Positions 6,278 to 26,046 of a DNA stretch of 64,000 nucleotides are shown piece by piece. Below the pieces are notes generated by a model, which searched no databases, was not told the DNA's origin, and was given only the letters and a program-made list of their open reading frames with translations. The stretch lies in assembly GCF_988243305.1 (NCBI RefSeq), contig NZ_OZ547136.1, one strand, 5' to 3'. A program made the translations under genes and the position numbers. Every line of letters begins with the position of its first letter. Position 1 is the stretch's first letter.

Positions 6278-6290
6278 TTGTTATTGCATA

Positions 6291-6327
6291 AAACCGCGCC
6301 ATGTCTGCATATGGCGCGGTTTCTCTT
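6291..6327 (+). terminator. intrinsic terminator downstream of betT
   Basis: Perfect 11-bp stem aaccgcgccat / atggcgcggtt with 8-nt loop, followed by tctctt, 14 nt after the betT stop. Confidence 0.7.
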
Positions 6328-7154
6328 ACCTCTTGATACGTTATATCTGTGTACAGTTAAGCCCTTAGTATCGATTGATGATTGCCAGGCAACAGATAAT
6401 AAAAAAGAAAAGAACTATTGAAGCCCAAAACCTACGCTTGGACTGTTGTGAATGTTCAATAAGCTTAGTCTTATTTAATGTAAATATTGGTGCTAATTTG
6501 AAATGACGCTTTATTCATGGGAAACGCGTAGCGCAAATCAACTAAAATCAATGTAACTGTTTGTTGTTTAAGGTTTAATTGTCTGTGTCTGATATTTTAT
6601 TGATTGTTTTAAATATTGTTTTTATTGTCATTGTTATAATGTTGGCTATCTATTGCTGAATGGATTCAGCCTTAAAAAGCAGGTTGTTAAGGGATAGACA
6701 TAGAGTAATGACGTGTATGCATAACCAACATCTTTACTCATTATGTCATTGAATGTTGACGCTATGTGTTTATGAGGTTGAGGTATTTTCAGTTGATCTG
6801 GATTGTTAAATTCATATAATGCGCCTTTACTCATGAATGGGCGTCAATACGTAGTGGGAAATTATAAATATTGAAATAGTCCAACTACTTCTTTATTACC
6901 AAAAATGAGTATCTGAATTTTAATATTGCATTCTTGCGTGATTATCTCCTGAGTTTGACTTGTGATTACCTTTTTAAGGTATTTAGCGTAACTGTTTTTG
7001 AGCGAGCATCAGAGGTAAAGATAATCTTTTTGATAGTGATGTGGGATGTTATGCGTATGGCATCGCTGATGTTTATGGTTACCCCTTATGTGTGCTCAGG
7101 AATCCACAGGTAATCACTCATACTGAACAGCGATAAAAGATAAAAGGTGTGTTC

Positions 7155-8243
7155 ATGAATTCATGTGATTTTCGTGTTTTTCTGCAAGAGTTCGGTACAA
7201 CGGTTCATTTGTCATTGCCTGGTAGCGTATCCGAGAAAGAACGACTGCTACTCAAGCTGCTGATGCAGGGAATGTCTGTAACAGAAATATCACAGTACAG
7301 AAATCGCAGTGCAAAGACCATTTCACATCAAAAGAAACAGCTCTTTGAGAAACTGGGGATTCAGAGCGATATTACTTTCTGGCGGGATATTTTCTTTCAG
7401 TACAATCCGGAGATCATATCCGCCACGGGTAATAATAGTCACAAATATATTAATGATAATCACTATCACCATATCGTCACGCCTGAAGCCATCAGTCTGG
7501 CGTTGGAAAACCATGAATTTAAATCGTGGATCCAACCGGTTTTCTGCGCGCAGACTGGGGTACTGACGGGCTGTGAGGTGCTTGTCCGCTGGGAACATCC
7601 ACAAACGGGAATTATCCCACCGGATCAGTTTATTCCTCTGGCGGAGTCATCTGGTCTTATTGTCATAATGACTCGCCAGTTGATGAAACAGACTGCGGAT
7701 ATTCTGATGCCGGTAAAACATTTGCTGCCGGACAATTTCCATATTGGCATCAACGTCTCGGCGGGTTGTTTTTTGGCTGCGGGATTTGAAAAAGAGTGTC
7801 TGAACTTGGTTAAGAAATTAGGTAACGATAAAATCAAACTGGTTCTCGAGCTAACGGAACGTAACCCTATTCCGGTAACGCCAGAAGCCAGAGCGATATT
7901 TGACAGCCTTCATCAGCACAACATTACCTTTGCGCTGGATGACTTTGGTACGGGTTATGCGACCTATCGTTACTTGCAGGCGTTCCCGGTCGATTTTATT
8001 AAGATCGATAAGTCATTTGTGCAAATGGCGAGCGTGGACGAAATATCCGGTCATATTGTGGACAATATTGTCGAACTGGCGCGTAAGCCTGGTCTGAGTA
8101 TCGTGGCGGAAGGGGTAGAAACCCAGGAGCAGGCGGATTTAATGATCGGCAAAGGCGTTCACTTTTTGCAGGGCTATTTGTACTCTCCGCCAGTACCGGG
8201 TAATAAATTTATCTCTGAATGGGTAATGAAAGCAGGTGGTTGA
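7155..8243 (+). CDS. pdeL: c-di-GMP phosphodiesterase with LuxR-type HTH and EAL domain
   Basis: ORF 7149..8243; ATG at 7155 gives MNSCDFRVF; EAL-domain motifs; K-12 yahA position. Confidence 0.93.
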   Translation: MNSCDFRVFLQEFGTTVHLSLPGSVSEKERLLLKLLMQGMSVTEISQYRNRSAKTISHQKKQLFEKLGIQSDITFWRDIFFQYNPEIISATGNNSHKYINDNHYHHIVTPEAISLALENHEFKSWIQPVFCAQTGVLTGCEVLVRWEHPQTGIIPPDQFIPLAESSGLIVIMTRQLMKQTADILMPVKHLLPDNFHIGINVSAGCFLAAGFEKECLNLVKKLGNDKIKLVLELTERNPIPVTPEARAIFDSLHQHNITFALDDFGTGYATYRYLQAFPVDFIKIDKSFVQMASVDEISGHIVDNIVELARKPGLSIVAEGVETQEQADLMIGKGVHFLQGYLYSPPVPGNKFISEWVMKAGG

Positions 8244-13109: not shown

Positions 13110-14527
13110 TGAGCCAGTCACTGTTTAGCCAACCATTGAACGTTATTAACGTCGGCATCGCCATGTTTAGCGATGACCTGAAAAAGCAGCATGTAGAAGT
13201 GACTCAACTCGACTGGACGCCGCCGGGGCAGGGCAATATGCAGGTGGTGCAGGCGCTGGATAACATTGCCGATTCGCCGCTGGCAGACAAAATCGCCGCC
13301 GCTAACCAGCAGGCTTTGGAGCGCATTATCCAGTCGCATCCGGTGCTGATTGGTTTTGATCAGGCGATTAACGTGGTGCCGGGTATGACGCCGAAAACCA
13401 TTCTTCACGCCGGACCGCCGATCACCTGGGAAAAAATGTGTGGCGCGATGAAAGGCGCGGTCACCGGAGCGCTGGTGTTCGAAGGGCTGGCGAAAGATCT
13501 CGATGAGGCGGCTGAACTGGCGGCCTCCGGGGAGATCACCTTCTCGCCGTGCCACGAGCACGACTGCGTGGGTTCGATGGCGGGTGTTACCTCGGCCTCG
13601 ATGTTTATGCACATCGTAAAAAACAAAACCTACGGCAACATCGCTTACACCAATATGAGCGAGCAGATGGCGAAGATTTTGCGTATGGGCGCTAACGACC
13701 AGAGCGTGATTGACCGCCTCAACTGGATGCGCGATGTGCAGGGGCCAATGCTGCGCGACGCGATGAAAATTATCGGCGAAATCGATCTGCGCTTAATGCT
13801 GGCGCAGGCGCTGCATATGGGCGATGAATGCCATAACCGCAATAACGCCGGGACGACGTTGCTGATTCAGGCGCTGACGCAGGGGATTATTCAGGCGGGT
13901 TATTCCGTCGAGCAACAGCGCGAAGTGTTTGAGTTTGTCGCCAGCAGCGACTACTTCTCCGGCCCGACGTGGATGGCGATGTGTAAAGCGGCGATGGATG
14001 CGGCGCACGGCATCGAATACAGCACCGTGGTCACCACCATGGCGCGTAACGGCGTCGAGTTCGGCCTGCGGGTCAGCGGATTACCGGGGCAATGGTTTAC
14101 CGGTCCGGCGCAGCAGGTGATCGGGCCGATGTTTGCCGGTTATAAGCCGGAAGATTCGGGGCTGGATATCGGCGACAGCGCCATCACTGAAACCTACGGC
14201 ATTGGCGGATTTGCCATGGCGACCGCGCCCGCGATCGTCGCGCTGGTGGGCGGTACGGTGGAAGAGGCTATCGATTTCTCCCGCCAGATGCGTGAAATCA
14301 CTCTCGGTGAAAACCCCAACGTCACCATTCCGCTGCTCGGTTTTATGGGCGTGCCGTCGGCAATCGACATCACCCGCGTGGGCAGCAGCGGCATTCTGCC
14401 GGTGATCAACACCGCCATCGCCCATAAAGATGCGGGCGTCGGCATGATTGGTGCGGGCATTGTGCATCCACCATTCGCCTGCTTCGAGAAAGCCATTCTC
14501 GGCTGGTGCGAACGTTACGGCGTCTGA
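13109..14527 (+). CDS. yahG: DUF1116-family protein (YlbE paralog)
   Basis: 472-aa ORF; ATG overlaps yahF stop (ATGA). Confidence 0.88.
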   Translation: MSQSLFSQPLNVINVGIAMFSDDLKKQHVEVTQLDWTPPGQGNMQVVQALDNIADSPLADKIAAANQQALERIIQSHPVLIGFDQAINVVPGMTPKTILHAGPPITWEKMCGAMKGAVTGALVFEGLAKDLDEAAELAASGEITFSPCHEHDCVGSMAGVTSASMFMHIVKNKTYGNIAYTNMSEQMAKILRMGANDQSVIDRLNWMRDVQGPMLRDAMKIIGEIDLRLMLAQALHMGDECHNRNNAGTTLLIQALTQGIIQAGYSVEQQREVFEFVASSDYFSGPTWMAMCKAAMDAAHGIEYSTVVTTMARNGVEFGLRVSGLPGQWFTGPAQQVIGPMFAGYKPEDSGLDIGDSAITETYGIGGFAMATAPAIVALVGGTVEEAIDFSRQMREITLGENPNVTIPLLGFMGVPSAIDITRVGSSGILPVINTAIAHKDAGVGMIGAGIVHPPFACFEKAILGWCERYGV

Positions 14528-14621
14528 CCTGCAAACGCACCTTACGATCCCTTCTCCCTTCTGGGGAGAGGGGCAACCTCACTCTCATAACCCCATCACC
14601 CTCTGTAGCGGACATAACAAC

Positions 14622-15572
14622 ATGAAAGAGCTTGTGGTCGTTGCCATTGGTGGCAACAGCATTATCAAAGATAACGCCAGCCAGTCGATTGAGCATCAGG
14701 CGGAGGCGGTGAAGGCCGTCGCCGATACGGTGCTGGAAATGCTGGCTTCCGATTACGACATTGTGCTGACCCACGGCAACGGGCCGCAGGTCGGGCTGGA
14801 TTTACGCCGCGCGGAGATTGCCCACGAGCGCGAAGGGCTGCCCTTAACGCCGCTGGCGAACTGTGTGGCGGATACGCAAGGCGGCATTGGCTATCTGATC
14901 CAGCAGGCGCTGAACAACCGGCTGGCGCGTCACGGCGAGAAAAAAGCCGTCACCGTGGTGACTCAGGTGGAAGTGGATAAAAACGATCCGGGATTTGCTC
15001 ATCCCACCAAGCCCATCGGCGCATTCTTTAGTGACAGCCAGCGTGACGAATTACAAAAGGCAAATCCTGACTGGCGTTTTGTTGAAGATGCCGGACGGGG
15101 CTATCGCCGCGTGGTCGCCTCGCCGGAACCGAAACGTATTGTCGAAGCACCTGCCATTAAGGCGCTGATCCAGCAAGGCTTTGTGGTGATTGGCGCGGGC
15201 GGCGGTGGAATTCCGGTAGTGCGTACTGAAGCGGGGGATTACCAAAGCGTGGACGCGGTTATCGACAAAGATCTCTCTACCGCGCTACTGGCTCGCGAAA
15301 TTCACGCCGACATTCTGGTGATCACCACGGGCGTGGAAAAAGTGTGTATTCACTTTGGCAAGCCGCAGCAGCAGGCGCTGGATCGGGTGGATATTGCCAC
15401 CATGACCCGCTATATGCAGGAAGGGCATTTCCCACCCGGCAGCATGTTGCCAAAAATCATCGCCAGCCTGACGTTCCTGGAGCAGGGCGGTAAAGAAGTG
15501 ATTATCACCACGCCGGAATGCCTGCCTGCGGCGCTGCGTGGTGAAACGGGCACCCATATTATTAAAACGTAA
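14622..15572 (+). CDS. yahI: carbamate kinase-like protein
   Basis: ORF 14448..15572; internal ATG at 14622 gives MKELVVVAIGGNSI (amino-acid kinase fold), 316 aa. Confidence 0.9.
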   Translation: MKELVVVAIGGNSIIKDNASQSIEHQAEAVKAVADTVLEMLASDYDIVLTHGNGPQVGLDLRRAEIAHEREGLPLTPLANCVADTQGGIGYLIQQALNNRLARHGEKKAVTVVTQVEVDKNDPGFAHPTKPIGAFFSDSQRDELQKANPDWRFVEDAGRGYRRVVASPEPKRIVEAPAIKALIQQGFVVIGAGGGGIPVVRTEAGDYQSVDAVIDKDLSTALLAREIHADILVITTGVEKVCIHFGKPQQQALDRVDIATMTRYMQEGHFPPGSMLPKIIASLTFLEQGGKEVIITTPECLPAALRGETGTHIIKT

Positions 15573-15581
15573 GGACGTAAG

Positions 15582-16964
15582 ATGAAAGAAAACAATAGCC
15601 GCCGTGAGTTTCTGAGCCAGAGCGGTAAGATGGTCACCGCCGCCGCGCTGTTTGGTACCTCTGTGCCGCTCGCCCATGCGGCAGTCTCTGGCACAATCCA
15701 TTGCGACGCGAATAACACCATGAAAATCACTGACCCGCACTACTATCTCGACAACGTGCTGCTGGAAACCGGTTTTGACTACGAAAACGGTGTGGCAGTA
15801 CAGACCCGCACGGCGCACCAGACCGTAGAGATTCAGAACGGCAAAATTGTTGCCCTGCGCGAGAACAAGCAGCATCCGGACGCCACGCTGCCGCACTATG
15901 ACGCTGGCGGTAAGCTGATGCTGCCCACTACCCGCGACATGCATATTCATCTCGACAAAACCTTTTACGGCGGGCCGTGGCGCTCGCTCAATCGTCCGGC
16001 AGGCACCACCATCCAGGACATGATTAAGCTTGAGCAGAAAATGCTGCCGGAACTGCAACCGTATACTCAGGAGCGGGCGGAAAAACTGATCGATTTATTG
16101 CAATCGAAAGGCACCACCATTGCCCGCAGCCACTGCAATATCGAACCGGTTTCCGGCCTGAAAAATCTGCAAAATTTGCAGGCGGTTCTGGCGCGACGTC
16201 AGGCGGGCTTCGAGTGTGAAATTGTCGCCTTCCCGCAGCACGGTTTGCTGCTGTCGAAATCAGAACCCTTAATGCGCGAAGCGATGCAGGCGGGGGCGCA
16301 TTACGTCGGCGGGCTGGACCCGACCAGTGTTGATGGCGCGATGGAAAAATCCCTCGACACCATGTTCCAGATTGCGCTGGACTACGACAAAGGCGTTGAT
16401 ATTCACCTGCACGAAACCACTCCGGCAGGCGTGGCAGCCATCAATTATATGGTTGAAACGGTGGAGAAAACGCCGCAACTGAAGGGCAAGCTGACCATCA
16501 GCCACGCCTTTGCGCTGGCAACGCTCAATGAGCAACAGGTAGATGAACTGGCGCACCGGATGGCGGCGCAGCAAATTTCTATCGCCTCGACGGTGCCGAT
16601 TGGCACGCTACATATGCCGCTTAAACAACTGCACGACAAAGGCGTAAAAGTGATGACCGGCACCGACAGCGTTATCGACCACTGGTCGCCTTACGGCCTG
16701 GGCGACATGCTGGAAAAAGCCAATCTCTACGCGCAGCTCTATATTCGTCCTAACGAACAGAATTTGTCCCGTTCGCTGTTTTTAGCCACTGGCGATGTAT
16801 TGCCGCTCAACGAAAAAGGCGAGCGCGTCTGGCCCAAAGCGCAGGATGACGCCAGCTTTGTGCTGGTGGACGCCTCCTGTTCCGCCGAGGCGGTGGCGCG
16901 TATCTCGCCGAGAACGGCGACGTTCCATAAAGGGCAACTGGTGTGGGGGAGTGTGGCAGGTTGA
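15582..16964 (+). CDS. yahJ: amidohydrolase/deaminase with twin-arginine signal
   Basis: 460-aa ORF; N-terminal SRREFLSQSG...AHA Tat-type signal; metal-dependent hydrolase motifs. Confidence 0.9.
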   Translation: MKENNSRREFLSQSGKMVTAAALFGTSVPLAHAAVSGTIHCDANNTMKITDPHYYLDNVLLETGFDYENGVAVQTRTAHQTVEIQNGKIVALRENKQHPDATLPHYDAGGKLMLPTTRDMHIHLDKTFYGGPWRSLNRPAGTTIQDMIKLEQKMLPELQPYTQERAEKLIDLLQSKGTTIARSHCNIEPVSGLKNLQNLQAVLARRQAGFECEIVAFPQHGLLLSKSEPLMREAMQAGAHYVGGLDPTSVDGAMEKSLDTMFQIALDYDKGVDIHLHETTPAGVAAINYMVETVEKTPQLKGKLTISHAFALATLNEQQVDELAHRMAAQQISIASTVPIGTLHMPLKQLHDKGVKVMTGTDSVIDHWSPYGLGDMLEKANLYAQLYIRPNEQNLSRSLFLATGDVLPLNEKGERVWPKAQDDASFVLVDASCSAEAVARISPRTATFHKGQLVWGSVAG

Positions 16965-17262
16965 TGCGCATTTGATATGTCTGCAACGGTGAATCGTAAG
17001 AGATTTAAGCCCCAGGGAGTGGGGCGGGAATGGTTTGTTAATGAATGATCCTGAACTTTATAATCTCCCGGCATAATTTCCAGGGGATTATTTGAGAGAA
17101 ATACACAAAAGTGAGTTTTAACAAAGGTATTTATCAGGCCATAAATGTGACCTGCTTCGGATAAAAAAGATTCAGTATCGAAAAACCAATGATACTCTTG
17201 CTGATGGTTATCAACAGTAATTAAGATGTGATTTGTTTTTCCGTAATCGCGAAAATATTCTC

Positions 17263-17673
17263 ATGACCATAAAAGAAAAAATCTCACAAAAATATCCCCA
17301 TGCTTCCTTTTGTACTTTTGGCGATTCAGCAGCGTTGGCCGATCACCTCGCAACGTTGATTGCGACTGGTGTTAAAACAGCTTCCTGTGGTTCGCTGGCG
17401 GGATGTATTGAAGACAACGCATTTCCGCTGATTGGTGAGTATAAGATTGTAGAAAATAGCCGTGGTGAGCCTGTCTGTGTTATCAGAGTGATTGGCCTGC
17501 ATTTACTGCGCTTTTCTGATGTCACCGCGGAGCTTGCCCGTAAGGAAGGTGAAGGTGACCTCAGTCTTGAATATTGGCGTAATGAACACCGTCGTTTTTT
17601 CCAGGCAGAAGGATGCTATTCACCCGAAATGGACGTTATCTTTGAAGAATATGCCCTTATTGACGTTGTGTAG
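17263..17673 (+). CDS. ASCH-domain-like small protein (strain-variable)
   Basis: ORF 17233..17673 (TTG); ATG at 17263 gives MTIKEKISQKYP; not in K-12 at this locus as far as I recall. Confidence 0.6.
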   Translation: MTIKEKISQKYPHASFCTFGDSAALADHLATLIATGVKTASCGSLAGCIEDNAFPLIGEYKIVENSRGEPVCVIRVIGLHLLRFSDVTAELARKEGEGDLSLEYWRNEHRRFFQAEGCYSPEMDVIFEEYALIDVV

Positions 17674-17923
17674 ATAACTATTTTTCTACGCGAAATAAGC
17701 TCACAAACATAAAGTATCGCTAATTTTGTTTATTTTGCTATTTTTTACGTGATGATTGTCACACTTATTGTTACTGCCCGTTTTGTCCATATTTATAACC
17801 AAATTTTTAATAGCTGCCTGAAATAGGGCTGTTTATTCTGCATAAAAATATTCGAAAATTCTTATTCTCTCCAGCGCGCTAATTTGGGCGAACACTTCCT
17901 GACTACCCTGCAATGAGGCTGAA

Positions 17924-18910
17924 ATGATGAATAAACGTTTTGTTATCAATATGGTGTCTTCGCTGTTATTAGGCGCTGCGCTAATTTCTGCGCCGCTCCA
18001 GGCAGCGGAAAAAGTCGTGGTGAATATCTCTAAAGTCGATGGTATGCCGTGGTTTAATCGCATGGGCGAAGGTGTGGTTGAGGCGGGTAAAGCCTTTGGT
18101 GTTAATGCGTCACAGGTGGGGCCTTCAAGTACTGATGCTCCGCAACAGGTTAAAATTATTGAGGATTTAATCGCCCGTAAGGTTAATGCAATTACAATTG
18201 TGCCAAACGATGCCAACGTGCTGGAACCGGTATTCAAAAAAGCGCGAGATGCCGGAATTGTGGTTCTGACCAACGAATCCCCCGGTCAGCCAAGTGCTAA
18301 CTGGGATATCGAAATCATTGATAACGAAAAATTTGCCGCTGAATATGTTGAGCATATGGCGAAACGCATGGGTGGCAAGGGCGGCTATGTGATTTACGTG
18401 GGTAGTTTGACCGTGCCGCAGCATAACTTATGGGCTGACTTGCTGGTGAAATACCAGAAAGAGCATTACCCGGATATGCATGAAGTTACCCGCCGCATGC
18501 CGGTTGCCGAGAGTGTGGATGACTCACGTCGTACCACACTGGACCTCATGAAAACCTATCCTGACTTGAAAGCGGTTGTCTCCTTTGGTTCAAACGGTCC
18601 GATTGGCGCGGGACGTGCAGTGAAAGAGAAACGGGCGAAAAATAAAGTCGCAGTCTATGGCATGATGATCCCTTCACAGGCGGCATCACTGATTAAAAGT
18701 GGTGATATCACCGAAGGGATTACTTACGATCCGGCCTCTGCAGGTTACGCACTCGCGGCCGTCGCCAGCACGTTGCTGAAGGGTGAAGAGATCAAACCTG
18801 GATTAGAAATGGAGAATCTCGGTAAGGCCGACGTAGATATGGATAAGCGAATTATCCGTTTCCATAAGGTATTACTGGTCAACAAAGACAATATCGACTC
18901 ACTTTATTAA
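17924..18910 (+). CDS. periplasmic sugar-binding protein, LsrB/RbsB-like (CUT2 ABC family)
   Basis: 328-aa ORF with signal peptide ...APLQA|AEK; C-terminus VLLVNKDNIDSLY resembles LsrB-type proteins. Confidence 0.8.
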   Translation: MMNKRFVINMVSSLLLGAALISAPLQAAEKVVVNISKVDGMPWFNRMGEGVVEAGKAFGVNASQVGPSSTDAPQQVKIIEDLIARKVNAITIVPNDANVLEPVFKKARDAGIVVLTNESPGQPSANWDIEIIDNEKFAAEYVEHMAKRMGGKGGYVIYVGSLTVPQHNLWADLLVKYQKEHYPDMHEVTRRMPVAESVDDSRRTTLDLMKTYPDLKAVVSFGSNGPIGAGRAVKEKRAKNKVAVYGMMIPSQAASLIKSGDITEGITYDPASAGYALAAVASTLLKGEEIKPGLEMENLGKADVDMDKRIIRFHKVLLVNKDNIDSLY

Positions 18911-18920
18911 TCCATTTCTT

Positions 18921-18945
18921 CGGGGCGAAAGCCCCGATTCTTATT
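18921..18945 (+). terminator. intercistronic hairpin (attenuator/terminator-like)
   Basis: cggggc-gaaa-gccccg perfect stem with GNRA loop followed by attcttatt, between the binding-protein and ATPase genes. Confidence 0.5.
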
Positions 18946-18958
18946 GCCAGGGGATGCT

Positions 18959-20443
18959 ATGGAAACCTTCCTTTCCCTTCGTCATATCAACAAAACGTTT
19001 CATGCCACGCGAGCGCTGCGCGATGTTTCTCTCGACTTTATGTCGGGTGAGGTGCACTGCCTTGCCGGGCAAAACGGCTGTGGTAAATCGACGTTGATTA
19101 AAATTATGTCCGGTGTTTATCGCCCGGATGAGGGGGCGGAAATTACGCTTGGTGGGAAAAACTGGTCAAAGCTGACACCCGCCGCTTCGGTGGCGCAGGG
19201 GATTCAGGTGATTTATCAGGACCTCTCTTTATTTCCTAACCTGAGTGTCTGGGAGAATATCGCCGTGAATCACTATCACCACGGTCTGTTTGTTAACCGC
19301 CGTCGTCTGCGTGAGGTGGCGCAGGCGGCAATGACCAGTATTAACGTCACATTGCCACTGGATACGCTCGTTTCTGAGCTTTCAATTGCCCGCTGTCAGC
19401 TGGTGGCAATTTGCCGTGCACTGGCGCAGGACGCACGGTTGATCGTGATGGATGAACCAACCGCTTCGCTGACCCATCAGGAAGTGCAAGGGTTATTACA
19501 GGTGGTGCATCAATTGCGGGAACGCGGGATCTGCGTGGTCTTCGTCAGTCATCGTCTGGAAGAAGTGATGGAAGTTTCCGACCGTATTTCAGTGCTGAAA
19601 GATGGTGAGCTGGTCGGGACCTTTCCGGCCGCAGAGATGACCACAAAACAACTCAGTTTTCTGATGACCGGCCAGGAGTTCGAATATCAGGTACGAGAGT
19701 TGTGGCAGGGAAAATCCAGCCCCCCGGTGCTGGAGGTGCGTAATTTAAGTCGTCATGGGGAATATCAAAATATTAACTTGCGGGTGGAAGCGGGCGAAGT
19801 GGTGTCGATTGTTGGCCTGCTTGGTGCGGGGCGCACGGAATTATGTCTGAGTCTGTTTGGTATGACCCGACCGGATGCTGGTGAGATCCTCATCAACGGT
19901 CAGCCGGTTACACTGCATAGTAACCAGGACGCCATCCGCCACGGTATTGGTTATGTTTCGGAAGATCGCATGTCGCGCGGTTTGGTGATGGCGCAATCTA
20001 TTGAAGACAACATCATTAGCACTGTTTTTCACAAGGTAAAAGATCGCTTCGGCTTTCTGAGTGAAGCTAAAGTGCGTGACCTGGTGGACAGGCTAATCAA
20101 GGCATTGACCATCAAAGTCTCTGACCCACATCTCCCGGTGAATACGCTTTCCGGGGGTAACGCGCAGCGAGTATCGATCGCCAAATGGCTGGCGATTGGG
20201 CCACGACTGTTGATTCTCGATAGCCCGACTGTCGGTGTTGATATCGCCAACAAAGCAGGAATATACGGCATTATCAGCGATCTGGCGGCTCATGGCATTG
20301 CGGTATTGATGATCTGCGATGAAATTGAAGAAGCGTGGTATCAAAGCCACCGGATTTTGGTAATGCAAAAAGGTCAGATCACCCATAGCTTCCTGCCTGA
20401 CAGCAGTTCTCAGGCCAGGATTGCGGAGGTGGTAAATGGCTGA
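18959..20443 (+). CDS. sugar ABC transporter ATP-binding protein (two nucleotide-binding domains)
   Basis: ORF 18944..20443; ATG at 18959 (METFLSL); Walker A GQNGCGKST; duplicated NBD typical of RbsA/LsrA. Confidence 0.85.
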   Translation: METFLSLRHINKTFHATRALRDVSLDFMSGEVHCLAGQNGCGKSTLIKIMSGVYRPDEGAEITLGGKNWSKLTPAASVAQGIQVIYQDLSLFPNLSVWENIAVNHYHHGLFVNRRRLREVAQAAMTSINVTLPLDTLVSELSIARCQLVAICRALAQDARLIVMDEPTASLTHQEVQGLLQVVHQLRERGICVVFVSHRLEEVMEVSDRISVLKDGELVGTFPAAEMTTKQLSFLMTGQEFEYQVRELWQGKSSPPVLEVRNLSRHGEYQNINLRVEAGEVVSIVGLLGAGRTELCLSLFGMTRPDAGEILINGQPVTLHSNQDAIRHGIGYVSEDRMSRGLVMAQSIEDNIISTVFHKVKDRFGFLSEAKVRDLVDRLIKALTIKVSDPHLPVNTLSGGNAQRVSIAKWLAIGPRLLILDSPTVGVDIANKAGIYGIISDLAAHGIAVLMICDEIEEAWYQSHRILVMQKGQITHSFLPDSSSQARIAEVVNG

Positions 20444-21407
20444 ACTGAAAAAACGCCATGAATTCTGGCTGGCATTACTGATTGTGGTGCTGTTTGTTGG
20501 CCTTGCCTGGCGCAGCGACGAGTTTCTGACATTCGGTAATTTGTACGATCTCGCCAATAACTATGCCATGTTGACTATTCTCGCCTGTGGTTTGTTTGTG
20601 GTGTTGATTTCCGGTGGAATTGATATTTCGTTTCCAGCAATGACCATCATTGCCCAATACGGCATGGTGCTGTTGCTGCAAAAAATTGGTGGCAACTTCG
20701 CTGTCGCGTTTGCCCTGGCGGGCGGCATCGGCATTTTACTTGGCTTAATTAACGCCTTACTGGTTAATCGCCTACGGGTGCCTTCTATCATCATCACTAT
20801 CTCGACGCTGAATATTTTCTATGGCCTGCTGTTATGGTTGAGTAAAGGTGTGTGGCTGTACGACTTTCCGCCGTGGTTTGAGCAGGGGGTTATGTTGTTC
20901 AAGTACACCGATGCTGATGGCTATGACTATGGCCTTGGTCTACCGCTGATCGCCATGATTACGGTGGTGCTGCTAACAGCGTTTATCATGAATTTCACCA
21001 GTGTAGGGCGCAAAATTTATGCCCTTGGCGGGAACCGCGAATCAGCCAGTCGCATCGGCTTTAGTGTGCTGAAACTGCAACTTTTCGTCTATGGCTATAT
21101 GGGATTGATGTCTGGTGCTGCGGGTGTAGTGCAGTCGTGGACGGTGATGACTGTCGCCCCCGATTCTCTTCTGGGTTATGAGCTGACAGTACTGGCTGCG
21201 GTGGTGCTTGGCGGCACTAGTTTGCTCGGCGGGCGCGGCACGTTAACCGGTACTTTGCTCGGCGTGGTGTTGTTGGCAGTGATGCAAAACGGGCTAAATT
21301 TATTGGGAGTCTCGTCTTACTGGCAAACATTGATCACCGGCATCATCATCGTTGCCAGCATTAGTGCCACGGCGTGGAGTCAGCATCAGAACCGGAGTCT
21401 GCTATGA
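20436..21407 (+). CDS. sugar ABC transporter permease
   Basis: 323-aa multi-TM ORF; start overlaps ATPase stop by 8 nt. Confidence 0.85.
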   Translation: MAELKKRHEFWLALLIVVLFVGLAWRSDEFLTFGNLYDLANNYAMLTILACGLFVVLISGGIDISFPAMTIIAQYGMVLLLQKIGGNFAVAFALAGGIGILLGLINALLVNRLRVPSIIITISTLNIFYGLLLWLSKGVWLYDFPPWFEQGVMLFKYTDADGYDYGLGLPLIAMITVVLLTAFIMNFTSVGRKIYALGGNRESASRIGFSVLKLQLFVYGYMGLMSGAAGVVQSWTVMTVAPDSLLGYELTVLAAVVLGGTSLLGGRGTLTGTLLGVVLLAVMQNGLNLLGVSSYWQTLITGIIIVASISATAWSQHQNRSLL

Positions 21408-22360
21408 AAAAATCGTGGCGTAACAACGTTGAGTTTTACTTGATCGGCCTGCTGGTGCTAACTGTTGCAGCCTTCAGCATTACTATGCCGGAGATTTTCT
21501 GGTCGATAAGTAATTTCCAGTCCGTCGCTTCGCAAATGCCCGTGCTGGGCATTCTGGCGTTGGCTATGGCGGTGACCATGCTTTGCGGTGGCATTAACTT
21601 GTCAATTATAGCCACTGCTAACGCCTGTTCACTGGTGATGGCGTGGGTGGCGACTCAGTATCCACCGGGTATTGCTACGGTTGTCGCTACGCTGCTGGCG
21701 GGCGCTGGCGCGGCGGTGATAATCGGTTTATGTAACGGCGTATTGATTGCTGGTATTCGAGTGTCGCCAATTCTTGCAACACTCGGGATGATGACGTTGC
21801 TCAAAGGGGTAAATATTCTGGTGACAGGCGGTAGCGCCATTGCCAATTATCCCTCATGGGTGCTGTGGTTGAATCATGCACAGTGGTTCGGTGTTCCGCT
21901 ACCGATGTGGTTGTTTACCGCAGTGTCGCTAGGGCTGTGGATATTGCTGGAGAAAACGCCGCTCGGTAAATCCATTTATCTGATTGGTTCTAACGAACGA
22001 GCAACACTTTACTCCGGCATTAACACTCGTCGGGTGCTGATTTGGGTGTATGTCATTTCCGCCTTGCTTTGTGCGGTAGCGGCATTTTTGATGATGTCGA
22101 AACTCAACTCGGCTAAGGCCTCTTATGGCGAATCGTACTTGCTGGTGTCAATCCTCGCGGCAGTACTCGGCGGGGTTAATCCGGACGGCGGCAGCGGGCG
22201 GATAATTGGTATGGTGCTGGCGCTGTTTCTTCTGCAAATTATTGAAAGCGGCTTCAATATTCTCGGTATAAGCCCCTACCTGACGATGGCCTTATGGGGA
22301 ACGTTGCTGCTCTGTTTCATTCAGGCTCGCGGCATGTTGGGGCTGGATCGGGTGGTTTAA
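21404..22360 (+). CDS. sugar ABC transporter permease
   Basis: ORF 21374..22360; ATG at 21404 (MKKSWRN) overlaps upstream stop as ATGA, ggag 6 nt upstream. Confidence 0.82.
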   Translation: MKKSWRNNVEFYLIGLLVLTVAAFSITMPEIFWSISNFQSVASQMPVLGILALAMAVTMLCGGINLSIIATANACSLVMAWVATQYPPGIATVVATLLAGAGAAVIIGLCNGVLIAGIRVSPILATLGMMTLLKGVNILVTGGSAIANYPSWVLWLNHAQWFGVPLPMWLFTAVSLGLWILLEKTPLGKSIYLIGSNERATLYSGINTRRVLIWVYVISALLCAVAAFLMMSKLNSAKASYGESYLLVSILAAVLGGVNPDGGSGRIIGMVLALFLLQIIESGFNILGISPYLTMALWGTLLLCFIQARGMLGLDRVV

Positions 22361-22446
22361 ATATTGGCTATATTCAATGGACGCGTTTTGCCGCGATGAC
22401 ATATCAGGCATCGCCAAATACACATAGCTAATCAGGAGTAAACACA

Positions 22447-23496
22447 ATGAAGATCAAAGCTGTTGGTGCATATTCCGCTAAACAACCACTTGAACCGATG
22501 GATATCACCCGGCGTGAACCGGGACCGCATGATGTCAAAATTGAAATCGCTTACTGTGGCGTCTGCCATTCCGATATCCACCAGGTCCGTTCCGAGTGGG
22601 CGGGGACGGTTTATCCCTGCGTGCCGGGCCATGAAATTGTAGGGCGCGTGGTAGCTGTTGGTGATCAGGTAGAAAAATATGCGCCGGGCGATCTGGTCGG
22701 TGTCGGCTGTATTGTCGACAGTTGTAAACATTGCGAAGAGTGTGAAGACGGGCTGGAAAACTACTGTGATCACATGACCGGCACCTATAACTCGCCGACG
22801 CCGGACGAACCGGGCCATACTCTGGGCGGCTACTCACAACAGATCGTCGTTCATGAGCGATATGTTCTGCGTATTCGTCACCCGCAAGAGCAGCTGGCGG
22901 CGGTGGCACCTTTGTTGTGTGCAGGGATCACCACGTATTCGCCGCTACGTCACTGGCAGGTCGGTCCGGGTAAAAAAGTGGGCGTGGTCGGCATCGGCGG
23001 TCTGGGACATATGGGGATTAAGCTGGCCCACGCGATGGGGGCGCATGTGGTGGCATTTACCACTTCTGAGTCAAAACGCGAAGCGGCAAAAGCCCTGGGG
23101 GCCGATGAAGTTGTTAACTCACGCAATGCCGATGAGATGGCGGCTCATCTCAAGAGTTTCGATTTCATTTTGAATACAGTAGCTGCGCCACATAATCTCG
23201 ACGATTTTACCACCTTGCTGAAGCGTGATGGCACCATGACGCTGGTTGGTGCGCCTGCGACACCGCATAAATCGCCGGAAGTTTTCAACCTGATCATGAA
23301 ACGCCGTGCGATAGCCGGTTCTATGATTGGCGGCATTCCAGAAACACAGGAGATGCTCGATTTTTGCGCCGAACATGGCATCGTGGCTGATATAGAGATG
23401 ATTCGGGCCGATCAAATTAATGAAGCCTATGAGCGAATGCTGCGTGGTGATGTGAAATATCGTTTTGTTATCGATAATTGCACACTAACAGACTGA
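22447..23496 (+). CDS. yahK: Zn-dependent alcohol dehydrogenase / aldehyde reductase
   Basis: 349-aa ORF; GHEIVG and CxxC zinc motifs; synteny. Confidence 0.93.
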   Translation: MKIKAVGAYSAKQPLEPMDITRREPGPHDVKIEIAYCGVCHSDIHQVRSEWAGTVYPCVPGHEIVGRVVAVGDQVEKYAPGDLVGVGCIVDSCKHCEECEDGLENYCDHMTGTYNSPTPDEPGHTLGGYSQQIVVHERYVLRIRHPQEQLAAVAPLLCAGITTYSPLRHWQVGPGKKVGVVGIGGLGHMGIKLAHAMGAHVVAFTTSESKREAAKALGADEVVNSRNADEMAAHLKSFDFILNTVAAPHNLDDFTTLLKRDGTMTLVGAPATPHKSPEVFNLIMKRRAIAGSMIGGIPETQEMLDFCAEHGIVADIEMIRADQINEAYERMLRGDVKYRFVIDNCTLTD

Positions 23497-23531
23497 AAAA
23501 ATTAATAAATATCCTGTGGTTTAACATATTA

Positions 23532-23573
23532 ATTTCGCTCTCCACTTAACTTTTTAGTTAAGGAGAGCGAAAT
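23532..23573. terminator. long palindrome downstream of yahK (terminator or binding site)
   Basis: Perfect 12-bp arms atttcgctctcc / ggagagcgaaat around an 18-nt loop; no clear T-run. Confidence 0.4.
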
Positions 23574-23738
23574 AATATCAAAGTAGCAGTAAAACCTATA
23601 ACGTAAATTCAAATTGTTAAATTAACTCCCTCCAGGACACAATACTTCACACGTTAGTTATGAGCGATTTCTGATAGTGCATGGTTTAATCAGGGCTTTA
23701 TTATCTGCGACGTTTATTTTTATTTAAGAGAGATCGCG

Positions 23739-24554
23739 ATGATATCATTAAAAGCTCCGCACAATAATTTGATGCCATATACGCAACAAAGCATACTTAA
23801 TACAGTAAAAAACAATCAGTTACCAGAGGATATCAAAAGCTCCCTGGTTTCCTGTGTCGATATATTCAAGGTTTTGATTAAACAATATTATGATTATCCT
23901 TATGATTGTCGTGATGATTTAGTCGATGACGACAAACTCATTCATCTCATGGCTGCCGTACGAGACTGTGAGTGGTCAGACGATAACGCACTCACCATAA
24001 ATGTGCAGTTTAATGATTTCCCAGGATTTTATGACTGGATGGATTACCCTGATCACCCGGTTAAGTTTGTTTTTCGCATACTTGAAAATCAAAAAGGGAC
24101 AGTTTGGGTATATGACCAGGATGATGCGTTTCTTGATATTAAAGCAAATGTGCAGGCTGGACGCTTTACCGGGCTTAAGAAATTAGTGCAGTTTATCGAT
24201 TCAGTGCGAACAGATTGCAAATGTATTCTTCTTGAACACCATATGCCTTTGCTGAGACTTTTCCCTAAAGGGAAAGAGTGTATGCATGTGGAAAAATGGC
24301 TTCGCGAAATGTCGTCTATTCCGGAGACCGACGCACCCATTAAGCAGGCGCTTGCGCATGGATTATTATTACACTTAAAAAATATCTACCCTGTTTTTCC
24401 TGAATCACTGGTGAGGTTATTGCTCTCTGTTCTGGACGTAAAAACATACAGAGATGATGCGCGATTAAATCAATGGATATCTAATAGAGTCCAGGAATTA
24501 GGTGACAGATATTATCCTGTAAATAAGCACGTTAAAATCCGCTACACTCTTTAG
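23739..24554 (+). CDS. yahL: uncharacterized protein
   Basis: 271-aa ORF in AT-rich low-GC context; synteny. Confidence 0.8.
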   Translation: MISLKAPHNNLMPYTQQSILNTVKNNQLPEDIKSSLVSCVDIFKVLIKQYYDYPYDCRDDLVDDDKLIHLMAAVRDCEWSDDNALTINVQFNDFPGFYDWMDYPDHPVKFVFRILENQKGTVWVYDQDDAFLDIKANVQAGRFTGLKKLVQFIDSVRTDCKCILLEHHMPLLRLFPKGKECMHVEKWLREMSSIPETDAPIKQALAHGLLLHLKNIYPVFPESLVRLLLSVLDVKTYRDDARLNQWISNRVQELGDRYYPVNKHVKIRYTL

Positions 24555-24966
24555 TTCAGAAAGGGTTCCACCTGCGAGTTGTTATTCCACCAGAGAGTGA
24601 ATCGCAAAGCAGGTAATCATTTCATCTGTATATCCGTATGCCAAATGGCATTCCACCGCCTTTTTCGCCGATATTTTGTTGTGATCGGCGACGCTTCGCT
24701 TAAAAAAGCATCAGCAGTGGTTTCGCAGCTATACAGTGTATAAAAAATGATCTCATGCAGATGTTTTGTGAATGTGTGGGTTGACATTCATATGAAAAAA
24801 ATCATAATTCCATCATGTTTGTGTGGGGTCTTTTCTGTATCTTACGCATCGCACTCAAGCCTGACAGAAAATATGCTGTAAGGCTCATATCAAAAACCGC
24901 CATTAGCTCATCAGGAAGAGCAGACGACAACCAGGATTGTTGTATGGTACGGGGTTCGAGGCCTCG

Positions 24967-25212
24967 ATGGCGGTCCAACTTTTCATAACTCTTCTGAATC
25001 AGATCCCCTTATTATCATCCCTGCAAAGTGGAACATTGCCATTGTTTGGCTATTCAGGACGGGTCAGAGCAATGAAAAAAGCCCACACAGGGGAGAGTGG
25101 GCTGAAATGGGAAGCTAAAGACTCAAGTAAACTTATCGGAAATAAGGACCACGCATTACGGGGGCTATCATCGCCGATGGTCGGGATTCGGCAAATCAGG
25201 TTGATTACGTAG
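24967..25212 (+). CDS. yahM: small uncharacterized protein
   Basis: ORF 24937..25212; ATG at 24967 gives MAVQLFITLLNQ, 81 aa; synteny. Confidence 0.65.
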   Translation: MAVQLFITLLNQIPLLSSLQSGTLPLFGYSGRVRAMKKAHTGESGLKWEAKDSSKLIGNKDHALRGLSSPMVGIRQIRLIT

Positions 25213-25228
25213 AGAGTAAATTATCTGC

Positions 25229-25900
25229 TCACCGCTGCGTCACCCCTTCGTAAATCAGGCGTAGCGCGAATACACCAATAATTGCACCAATAACCCGACT
25301 GGCAACGCGTTGCATACGCCCATAAGCACGACGCACTGCGGGCAAAGAAAACGCCTGACTAAGAAAGACTCGCCAGATAATTGATGCGAGTACAATCCCC
25401 GCCCAGGCCATTAAACGTGCCCATGTTGGTGTTTCGGCATTTAATGTTACTGAGAAAATACTGATAAAAAATAAAACGGTTTGCGGGTTAGAGAGATCGG
25501 TAATTAATCCGCGGCGAAAAAAAACATACCAGGGGGCGTTAATCGGTTGTTGTAGTGTGCTCATTTGCGGTGTTGACTGGCGGCGCATGCTGCACCACGC
25601 AAACCATAAGAGATAAGCGCCGCCGACGATTCTGATAAGCGAAAAAATCTCCTCGCACTGCGTAATTAACGTCGCCAAACCAAACAAACCCAACCCGGAA
25701 TAAAACGCATCGCCCAGCGCCACGCCCAGCCCGGTCAGCACCCCTGCGCGTCGACCGGAAGCCAGGCTGGTTTGTACTACCACAAAGAGATTGGCTCCCG
25801 GATTAAAAAAAGTAATCACGAACAGTCCTACGGTCAGGTAAACGGCGTGCAAAGGATCCATAGTGATTTCATCCATAAATAAGTGAAGTAACTTCATCAT
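25229..25900 (-). CDS. yahN: LysE/RhtB-family amino-acid exporter
   Basis: 223-aa hydrophobic ORF; synteny. Confidence 0.88.
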   Translation of the reverse strand: MMKLLHLFMDEITMDPLHAVYLTVGLFVITFFNPGANLFVVVQTSLASGRRAGVLTGLGVALGDAFYSGLGLFGLATLITQCEEIFSLIRIVGGAYLLWFAWCSMRRQSTPQMSTLQQPINAPWYVFFRRGLITDLSNPQTVLFFISIFSVTLNAETPTWARLMAWAGIVLASIIWRVFLSQAFSLPAVRRAYGRMQRVASRVIGAIIGVFALRLIYEGVTQR

Positions 25901-26046
25901 ATTTCTACCAAAAATAATCGGGTGCGAGAGAGATCACAAAGTGTCTTATTTCCGGTTACTGGCGTTTATGCCCTGACTGAACTAATTATTAATCAACCCA
26001 ATAATGTGGGTGGGTGATAGTGTGATAACAACTCTGGAGCCGTAAT

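Follow-up and report, generated by a model that had tools for sequence, protein, structure and literature searches.

The aauABCD sugar importer locus between yahJ and yahK of Escherichia coli and its loss from K-12-type strains

Introduction

The spacer between yahJ and yahK is 5,482 bp long in the window analyzed here (the whole 64,000-nt stretch of contig NZ_OZ547136.1, RefSeq assembly GCF_988243305.1) and 376 bp in a K-12 derivative, a difference of 5,106 bp. What this additional sequence encodes, which sugar its transporter carries and whether it was gained by one lineage or lost from another are the questions raised by the locus. A preliminary description of the window had put the extra sequence at about 5.1 kb and the K-12 gap at a few hundred bp, both in agreement with the measured lengths, and had read the difference as an accessory insert encoding an orphan transporter.

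The transporter is already known and is not a new discovery: its regulator, ligand, crystal structure and distribution in E. coli were published, together with the transporter itself, in 2024-2025 (Cottam et al., Nat Commun; PMC11127945, PMC12307932). The four transporter genes are, with high confidence, aauABCD, the E. coli 'accessory L-arabinose uptake' ABC importer (Z0415-Z0419, O-island 17 of EDL933), working by the mechanism outlined below. Added here are a deletion scar, a predicted araI-like tandem operator and the placement of an ASCH gene in the yah neighborhood.

Results and Discussion

Layout of the locus and transporter class

The ORF map between yahJ and yahK comprises an ASCH ORF, a substrate-binding protein (SBP), a double-NBD ATPase and two permeases, all on the plus strand (Table 1); yahJ and yahK are the left and right flanks and lie outside the transporter system. 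Together with Pfam and NCBIfam matches, this map bears out the gene content first proposed, an ASCH-like protein and a complete CUT2-type importer, and the transporter genes are indeed absent from K-12, where the 376-bp spacer holds gene remnants. No kinase, isomerase, regulator or mobility gene lies between yahJ and yahK according to the ORF map, NCBIfam and the annotation of syntenic loci, and no direct or inverted repeats above chance-level 14-27-mers were found at the flanks, both as previously described. Rfam returned 0 matches, riboswitches included, in the leader or spacers. The whole 5.5-kb region is collinear with O157:H7 at 98.2% nucleotide identity.

Table 1. Features of the yahJ-yahK region, in window coordinates.
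Feature	Position	Strand	Basis
yahJ (amidohydrolase family)	15582..16964	+	NCBIfam NF005312, 716 bits, above cut-off; RefSeq annotation of syntenic loci
Deletion 1, ~0.6 kb, absent from K-12/ST131-type allele	17026..17618	.	alignments
ASCH-domain protein, YhfF/COG4405-like, 136 aa	17263..17673	+	Pfam PF04266, E=1e-21
Deletion 2, ~4.5 kb, absent from K-12, ST131 and Escherichia sp. E2593	17768..22275	.	alignments
Candidate AraC operator, tandem half-sites (predicted)	17775..17812	+	araI-like layout, recurrence upstream of orthologues
aauA, periplasmic D-ribulose-binding protein, 328 aa	17924..18910	+	326/328 identical to PDB 9I1M
Intercistronic hairpin, aauA/ATPase gap	18920..18937	+	terminator-like scan
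ATPase, two fused NBDs (aauB by gene order), 494 aa, intact	18959..20443	+	NCBIfam, motifs
Permease 1 (aauC by gene order), 323 aa	20436..21407	+	NCBIfam AraH/RbsC-type matches under cut-off
Permease 2 (aauD by gene order), 318 aa	21404..22360	+	NCBIfam RbsC/LsrD-type matches under cut-off
yahK (NADPH-dependent aldehyde reductase)	22447..23496	+	RefSeq annotation of syntenic loci

By NCBIfam, all four proteins fit the CUT2 class, with a cluster-B type sugar SBP, a single double-NBD chain and RbsC/AraH-type permeases. More specifically, the ATPase carries two Walker A/B sets, and its best NCBIfam matches are CUT2 ATPases of the AraG, YtfR, XylG and LsrA types, all under the equivalog cut-offs. 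Of the overlaps previously described as ATGA-type, that between the permease genes is ATGA itself and that between the ATPase and permease 1 genes is the 8-nt ATGGCTGA. The hairpin between aauA and the ATPase gene consists of a 7-bp GC-rich stem and a GAAA loop, followed by TTCTTATT, and may terminate transcription in part or stabilize the mRNA, favoring an excess of binding protein.

An SBP, a fused double ATPase and two permeases thus form a four-gene operon between yahJ and yahK, and in position, gene order and overlaps the window matches AauABCD of EHEC, making it the same locus in another strain. The window strain carries an intact aau copy, unlike EDL933-lineage strains: its ATPase gene is uninterrupted, whereas premature stops occur in EDL933/TUV93-0 (internal stop in TUV93-0; PMC11127945) and in the O157:H7 strain Z1811, also as an internal stop.

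The binding protein and its ligand

The SBP of the window is identical over its full length to PDB 9I1M at 326 of 328 positions (99.4%, E=1e-213). This structure, for which Cottam et al. 2025 is the sole citing paper, is AauA of EHEC (Z0415-Z0419, OI-17; PMC12307932), and the SBP is therefore a near-identical ortholog of that of a characterized transporter; the view of an orphan with unknown substrate is to be abandoned. The two substitutions relative to O157/9I1M, V200D and Q297E, both lie away from the pocket. A signal peptide is predicted, with cleavage around ...PLQA/AEK, and the RefSeq start of aauA is at 17927. The mature protein also matches PDB 3D02 over its full length (302 aa, 628 bits), a structural-genomics SBP deposited as a 'putative LacI-type transcriptional regulator'.

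Ring closure of a ketopentose yields the furanose form only. The ligand in the AauA crystal is ring-form alpha-D-ribulose (PMC12307932), in keeping with the furanose part of the earlier guess at the substrate. All six residues in contact with D-ribulose in that crystal (K37, W43, E118, H167, E196 and S223; PMC12307932) are kept in the window AauA. With its genes intact and every ligand contact retained, the window copy looks functional, a judgment drawn from near-identity to the EHEC system.

The RefSeq/PGAP product name, 'autoinducer 2 ABC transporter substrate-binding protein', and the other part of the earlier guess would instead make this an LsrB-type uptake system for autoinducer-2 (AI-2). 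LsrB is the second-best NCBIfam match of the SBP (E=4.9e-32), LsrB structures appear among its PDB matches (E~1e-21 to 1e-24), and the two ligand pockets occupy homologous positions (LsrB/AauA K35/K37, D116/E118, Q167/H167 and A222/S223). LsrACDB also resembles Aau in transporter class and SBP fold, but differs in ligand, in regulator and in gene order, the SBP gene being last in lsrACDB and first in aau. Moreover, the match to the NCBIfam LsrB model (NF011937) reaches 111 bits against an equivalog cut-off of 384, and the SBP is only 28% identical to K-12 LsrB. The AI-2 contacts that Pereira and co-workers are said to have described in 2009 are K35, D116, D166, Q167, P220 and A222; with the numbering verified on the K-12 LsrB sequence, only K35 of the six is kept (D116>E, D166>Q, Q167>H, P220>F, A222>S). 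No lsrK, lsrR, lsrF or lsrG lies between yahJ and yahK, while these genes are present in the true lsr operon at another place in K-12, and the measured high-affinity ligand is D-ribulose (PMC12307932). The description as LsrB-like therefore stands for fold and pocket position and fails for ligand specificity; AI-2 uptake is highly improbable, and the RefSeq name "autoinducer 2 binding protein" for AauA is wrong.

A rhamnose importer of the RhaSTPQ type can practically be dismissed. RhaS (TIGR02637) is the top NCBIfam match of the SBP (E=8.4e-40) and the rhamnose-binding proteins 4KVF and 5BQ3 are among its PDB matches, but the score of 137 bits is far under the cut-off of 342, no rhamnose catabolic genes or regulator occur in the yahJ-yahK interval, and the published induction is L-arabinose-specific and the published ligand D-ribulose. 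The NCBIfam equivalog models for rhamnose, ribose, xylose, allose, galactofuranose and rhizopine all score far under their cut-offs.

The 2024 reading of an accessory L-arabinose uptake system, in which L-arabinose scavenging is the main role and D-ribulose binding incidental, finds support in regulation: induction is by L-arabinose only, through AraC. An araE deletion mutant is partly rescued on L-arabinose when aau is overexpressed (PMC11127945), and the nearest NCBIfam models for ATPase and permease are AraG and AraH. Aau resembles AraFGH in these models and in belonging to the AraC regulon, but has two permease genes rather than one, lies in the accessory rather than the core genome and has an SBP of unrelated specificity, preferring D-ribulose over L-arabinose. 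The dissociation constants of AauA are 1.98 µM for D-ribulose and 598 µM for L-arabinose, an affinity about 300-fold weaker; no growth defect was found on L-arabinose alone, and the aau-dependent growth benefit appeared only upon addition of D-ribulose (PMC12307932). A main role in L-arabinose scavenging is accordingly improbable.

Proposed mechanism

In the mechanism favored here, L-arabinose-bound AraC would activate the aauA promoter, probably via araI-like half-sites at the predicted operator position (17775-17812). Secreted AauA would then capture alpha-D-ribulofuranose at micromolar affinity, binding L-arabinose weakly, and would hand the sugar to the translocator of two permeases and a fused double ATPase. 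Imported D-ribulose would be phosphorylated by the L-ribulokinase AraB, co-induced by L-arabinose, and would enter the pentose phosphate pathway. Because AraC and AraB are supplied by the L-arabinose system, neither a kinase nor a regulator need be linked to aau. D-ribulose is phosphorylated by AraB, and the growth benefit depends on araBAD as well as on aau (PMC12307932). Regulation, ligand and the AraB steps were demonstrated experimentally by others in EHEC, and the identity, intactness and deletion scars come from the present comparison. The in vivo physiological substrate of Aau rests on the work of a single laboratory.

The Rbl system of Citrobacter rodentium (ROD_24811-61), a CUT2 D-ribulose importer with a role in gut colonization, is similar to Aau by its authors' description, with >60% nucleotide identity. 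Unlike Aau, Rbl includes a dedicated D-ribulokinase, RblK, carries no sugar but D-ribulose and is induced by D-ribulose metabolism, outside AraC control (PMC12307932).

A candidate AraC operator

A reporter of the aau promoter in EHEC was induced by L-arabinose only, and induction was lost in an araC deletion mutant and restored by araC complementation (PMC11127945). The AraC operator is mapped in neither of the Cottam et al. papers, the words 'binding site' occurring 0 times in that of 2024 (PMC11127945). Upstream of aauA, two direct 17-bp half-sites, 21 bp apart, form a candidate operator: an I1-like half-site TGCCCGTTTTGTCCATA (17775-17791), which begins 149 bp before the aauA ATG, and an I2-like half-site TAACCAAATTTTTAATA (17796-17812), which is weak in E. 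coli (TAAC...TTAATA). The araI operator of araBAD, taken from the K-12 araC-araB spacer, is TAGCATTTTTATCCATA-AGAT-TAGCGGATCCTACCTGA and has the same 17+4+17 layout. The pattern TCCATA-N4-TARC occurs once in the 64-kb window, at the candidate operator, versus 0.16 expected, and a possible -10 element, TATTCT, follows at 17834-17839.

The araI-like tandem arrangement is also found upstream of aauA orthologues in eight other genera, including Klebsiella, Mangrovibacter, Franconibacter (in a record titled Enterobacter pulveris), Symbiopectobacterium, Leclercia, Silvania and Aeromonas. It is best preserved upstream of the orthologue of Klebsiella pneumoniae ATCC 13883, a protein 92% identical to AauA whose genomic neighborhood differs from yahJ-yahK, and of which we know of no functional study. 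Control of aau by AraC may also be indirect; 17775-17812 is the probable AraC operator of aauA, as predicted from layout and recurrence.

Distribution and origin of the locus

Among complete E. coli genomes, 2,211 of 5,426 (41%) carry the region in full, at 98-99.8% identity, and its presence or absence is thus a genuine common polymorphism. Deletion 1, in the K-12/ST131-type allele, takes out most of the ASCH gene, and deletion 2, with end points known to ~10 bp, takes out the candidate AraC operator and the promoter together with almost all of aauABCD. The junction of deletion 2 is the same in all three aau-negative sequences (K-12, ST131 and Escherichia sp. E2593), in each of which the last ~80-90 nt of the permease 2 gene are left; RefSeq marks a 75-nt C-terminal permease 2 pseudogene fragment in K-12 and ST131. 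Since the three share one scar with the 3' end of permease 2, absence of aau is the derived state. The locus has long been resident between yahJ and yahK; K-12-type strains lost it by two deletions, and the window strain did not gain it. In genome H30, most of the region was removed by an IS1-mediated deletion, and this too is not an empty site.

The alternative, that the 5.1 kb is an island that entered an empty yahJ-yahK spacer recently and by horizontal transfer, follows Cottam et al., who called aau horizontally acquired and EHEC-specific and listed it as O-island 17, absent from K-12 (PMC11127945). The four-gene cassette does occur in unrelated neighborhoods in other genera and so moved at some past time, and a degenerate-pattern scan of GTDB species representatives gave 17 loci, none titled as another named Escherichia species. 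However, every aau-negative allele examined is a scar rather than an empty site: K-12 and ST131 keep the 3' ends of both the ASCH gene and permease 2, contrary to the initial reading as an insert, and Escherichia sp. E2593 has the same aau deletion junction. Mobility genes and flanking repeats are absent, the GC content across the transporter genes (48-54%) is ordinary for E. coli, strains differ within the locus (~98% identity) about as much as they do in the flanks (~97.4%), and the 41% of complete genomes that carry the region extend beyond EHEC. Recent insertion is therefore unlikely. A mobile-element explanation was likewise rejected, since the region has neither an IS nor an integrase, and neither tRNA-linked features nor repeats at its flanks.

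Beyond the deletions themselves, a joint reading that we favor by a little holds that OI-17 is an ancestral Escherichia locus with a single ancient deletion allele, rather than an EHEC-associated island gained horizontally, and that the cassette is always accompanied by its own araI-like AraC operator. The ~4.5-kb deletion would then explain the absence of aau in phylogroups A and B2 and in at least one cryptic Escherichia lineage; the deletion allele would have been maintained or exchanged across lineages, the ASCH deletion arising later on the same haplotype; and the kinase-less cassette and its operator would travel together across Enterobacterales and beyond. No linked kinase was found near the cassette in the examined flanks of Leclercia, Mangrovibacter and Aeromonas.

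The ASCH gene

The ASCH ORF covers positions 5-102 of the 103 of its Pfam model, and the closest solved structures are the homologues PDB 1T62 and 3S9X. It had been grouped with the transporter into one insert, a grouping that its distribution contradicts. Escherichia sp. E2593, which is not E. coli, has an intact ASCH gene beside yahJ and lacks aau, and the 3' end of the gene persists as a remnant in K-12; in reciprocal fashion, no ASCH gene was found beside aau orthologues in other genera, and the Pseudenterobacter ASCH homologues adjoin arsC and lacZY. A functional linkage to the transporter was rejected on these grounds: the ASCH gene belongs to the yah neighborhood and is a separate gene that adjoins the cassette without being part of it.

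Conclusions

The present comparison flags a systematic misnomer in RefSeq, in which an "autoinducer 2" binding protein is named in thousands of genomes. It also refines what has been published on aau in two modest respects: aau-negative alleles share a deletion scar, and the cassette carries a conserved, predicted araI-like operator. If the cassette is indeed always accompanied by an AraC operator, the use of AraB for D-ribulose would be an old and conserved design of the AraC regulon rather than an innovation of EHEC.

Identity and layout of the locus

The transporter encoded between yahJ and yahK is the published D-ribulose/L-arabinose importer AauABCD and is already known. Its periplasmic substrate-binding protein (SBP, AauA) is identical to PDB chain 9I1M_A, the crystal structure of AauA from EHEC, at 326 of 328 positions (E=1e-213), and the yahJ-yahK interval is collinear with that of O157:H7 at 98.2% identity overall. 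Neither of the two differences from the O157/9I1M sequence (positions 200 and 297) is a ligand contact, and all six published contact residues are kept. The preliminary description, which treated the transporter as an orphan and its substrate as unknown, is thus superseded by the near-identity of the SBP to a characterized ortholog.

In the crystal structure, alpha-D-ribulose is contacted by W43, H167, E118, K37, E196 and S223, and AauA binds D-ribulose with a KD of 1.98 µM versus 598 µM for L-arabinose (PMC12307932). The EDL933 locus tags Z0415-Z0419 point to an earlier paper of the same group (Nat Commun 2024, PMC11127945); the locus is named Aau (AauABCD), assigned to O-island 17 and reported to raise fitness in the mouse gut (PMC11127945, PMC12307932). 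L-arabinose is the sole inducer of the promoter Paau, a response lost in an araC deletion mutant and regained with araC in trans (PMC11127945). The growth benefit from D-ribulose requires L-arabinose, aau and araBAD, and purified AraB phosphorylates D-ribulose (PMC12307932).

The interval contains five ORFs in one direction, and its genes meet in overlaps of ATGGCTGA and ATGA, in line with the ATGA-type overlaps described earlier. The ORF map and Pfam leave the initial account of an ASCH-like protein gene and a complete CUT2-type importer at this location largely intact. The estimate of about 5.1 kb of extra DNA also agrees with measurement, as the yahJ-yahK spacer of a K-12 derivative is 376 bp and that of the window is longer by 5,106 bp. 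No kinase, regulator or mobility gene was found in the interval and no significant repeats flank it, as had been stated; an Rfam search of the region matched no family. GC content is 40-43% near the ASCH gene versus 48-54% over the transporter genes.

Features of the yahJ-yahK region, in window coordinates
Feature	Position	Strand	Basis
yahJ	15582-16964	+	ORF map
ASCH-domain protein gene	17263-17673	+	Pfam PF04266, E=1e-21
Candidate AraC half-site 1, TGCCCGTTTTGTCCATA	17775-17791	+	araI-like direct repeat, 17 bp
Candidate AraC half-site 2, TAACCAAATTTTTAATA	17796-17812	+	araI-like direct repeat, 17 bp
Periplasmic sugar-binding protein gene (aauA)	17924-18910	+	ORF map
Fused double-NBD ATPase gene	18959-20443	+	ORF map
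Permease 1 gene	20436-21407	+	ORF map
Permease 2 gene	21404-22360	+	ORF map
yahK	22447-23496	+	ORF map
Deletion 1 (K-12/ST131 haplotype, second deletion)	~0.6 kb inside ASCH gene		alignment
Deletion 2 (K-12, ST131, E2593)	~17768-22275, ~4.5 kb		shared junction

Relationship to LsrB

In all annotated genomes inspected, RefSeq (PGAP) names the SBP an "autoinducer 2 ABC transporter substrate-binding protein", and the region carrying the gene so named occurs in about 2,200 genomes. LsrB from the true lsr operon of K-12 is 28% identical to the window SBP in alignment. Its six autoinducer 2 (AI-2) contacts are reportedly, after Pereira and colleagues in 2009, K35, D116, D166, Q167, P220 and A222, and the residues at these numbers agree with the K-12 LsrB sequence. 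Only K35 (one of six) is conserved in the window SBP, the others being replaced (D116 by E118, D166 by Q166, Q167 by H167, P220 by F221 and A222 by S223). Four AauA ligand contacts fall in alignment columns of LsrB contacts, so the pocket is homologous yet re-tooled.

The SBP scores 111 bits against the NCBIfam LsrB equivalog model (cut-off 384) and 137 bits against that of RhaS (cut-off 342), in both cases far too low. It works like a cluster-B sugar SBP and does not belong to the LsrB family. Thus, the earlier characterization as LsrB-like stands for the homologous pocket positions and fails for family and AI-2 type. Judged by its contact residues and by the published ligand, the SBP is misnamed in RefSeq.

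Probable loss rather than gain of the cassette

The interval was initially interpreted as an accessory insert, a reading that the aau-negative alleles examined do not sustain. Four stretches of the window align with the K-12 spacer: 16965-17025, 17619-17692 (the 3' end of the ASCH gene), 17711-17767 (a weak match) and 22280-22446, which comprises the yahK leader and the final ~80 nt of permease 2. The ASCH and permease-2 remnants rule out the K-12 spacer as an empty site; in both K-12 and ST131 the spacer bears a 75-nt C-terminal pseudogene fragment in the RefSeq annotation. Escherichia sp. E2593, a non-coli Escherichia with flanks ~90-93% identical, possesses yahJ and yahK as well as an intact ASCH gene and lacks the transporter; it too keeps the permease-2 remnant, at a junction identical to that of K-12 and ST131. 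A single ~4.5-kb deletion is therefore common to the three. Because aau-negative alleles retain remnants and this shared junction, absence of aau is best read as the derived state, at least in the alleles examined.

Of 5,426 complete E. coli genomes, 2,212 have a full ASCH gene and 2,211 the full region, a nearly perfect linkage of the two states. Identity between strains is ~98% inside the locus, similar to the flanks (97.4%). None of the records returned by a scan of species-representative genomes bears the title of another named Escherichia species; the scar allele may have passed between species. In the K-12-like strain NZ_AP027754.1 (locus 4816-6044), an IS1B element has deleted the DNA between the interior of yahE and a point immediately before yahK, a third, independent route of interval loss.

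Neighboring variation and database records

Downstream of yahK, the yahL region (window 23500-24750) is strongly AT-rich (35-42% GC). The gene, which matched no NCBIfam family, is absent from the ST131 locus (5420-6040 there) and is a second presence/absence polymorphism directly beside that of yahJ-yahK. The small ORF yahH, situated between yahG and yahI, has an annotation in K-12 and O157 and none in ST131 or the window's closest relative. The alignment of the window with O157 is interrupted at yahH (blocks 13385-14530 and 14585-26000), which indicates a small indel or divergent patch near 14530-14585.

The AauABCD proteins encoded by the 4.7-kb contig SFEK01000152.1 ("MAG: Bacteroidales bacterium") match their window counterparts at 98.7-99.7% identity; the contig almost certainly comes from E. 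coli and was mis-binned into a Bacteroidales MAG. GCA_046507365.1 has the complete yahJ-ASCH-aau-yahK order at 95.7% identity with nearly all genes fragmented; these splits have the look of indel errors left uncorrected in long reads and not of real pseudogenes. Of 5,048 places matching the interval, nine lie on records typed as plasmids.

Integrity of the ATPase

The window ATPase is full length, its 494 aa including both Walker A/B sets, and this copy of Aau accordingly looks functional from its sequence. The ATPase gene of O157:H7 strain Z1811 (5995-7479 of that locus) is interrupted by a stop at codon 87, whereas that of TUV93-0/EDL933 has one at codon 259 (PMC11127945); O157:H7 therefore seems to have lost the transporter's function on more than one occasion.

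In NBD2, Walker B (LLILDSPT) has Ser after Asp, where the catalytic Glu is normal, and Walker A reads GAGRT (motifs at window 20195-20215, ATPase residues ~417-423, and at residues ~286-294). The NBD1 signature is degenerate (LSIARCQ). The Mangrovibacter ortholog carries identical motifs; those of Leclercia are alike, but no NBD1 signature there matches the search pattern. These motifs suggest that catalysis is confined to a single ATP site of the two.

The ASCH gene

Close homologs of the ASCH gene are found only in Escherichia (89% identity in E2593). Those that come next (50-65% identity) are scattered across Enterobacterales, often labeled YhfF, and the Pseudenterobacter homolog adjoins arsC and lacZY. 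The gene is absent from the cassette of other genera and is treated here as an uncharacterized neighbor that is part of the yah interval, not a transporter component. The E. coli ASCH protein YqfB is an N4-acylcytosine amidohydrolase; this activity and the adjacent cytosine-deaminase-like YahJ prompt the guess that the role may be nucleobase-related.

A candidate AraC operator

Neither PMC11127945 nor PMC12307932 describes an operator for aau, and "binding site" is absent from the 2024 text. Upstream of aauA lie two candidate half-sites, the first beginning 149 bp from the ATG, which share the layout of K-12 araI (17-bp direct halves, 4-bp gap), read from the araC-araB spacer as TAGCATTTTTATCCATA-AGAT-TAGCGGATCCTACCTGA. 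The candidate operator, with its TCCATA box at 17786-17791, is the single place in the 64-kb window that fits TCCATA-N4-TARC, against 0.16 expected. Upstream of the orthologous SBP gene, Klebsiella has TAGTATTATTATCCATA-TTTA-TAGCTGAATATTACCTG. The same arrangement precedes the ortholog in Franconibacter (record titled Enterobacter pulveris), three Mangrovibacter species and Symbiopectobacterium, in Aeromonas with a TCCATG variant, and in Leclercia and Silvania with the register shifted. This phylogenetic footprint supports the inference that AraC acts directly at the predicted operator.

The cassette lies between a T6SS hcp gene and pgsA-uvrC-uvrY in Leclercia and adjoins ansB in Mangrovibacter, with no linked kinase found beside either; it has moved between neighborhoods in deeper time. 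The recurrence of the operator points to reliance on the arabinose regulon as a long-standing trait of the cassette. What is added here to the published picture of Aau is detail, not a new kind of system: a deletion scar common to aau-negative alleles, an araI-like operator conserved across genera, a misnomer in RefSeq and a second ATP site that is degenerate.
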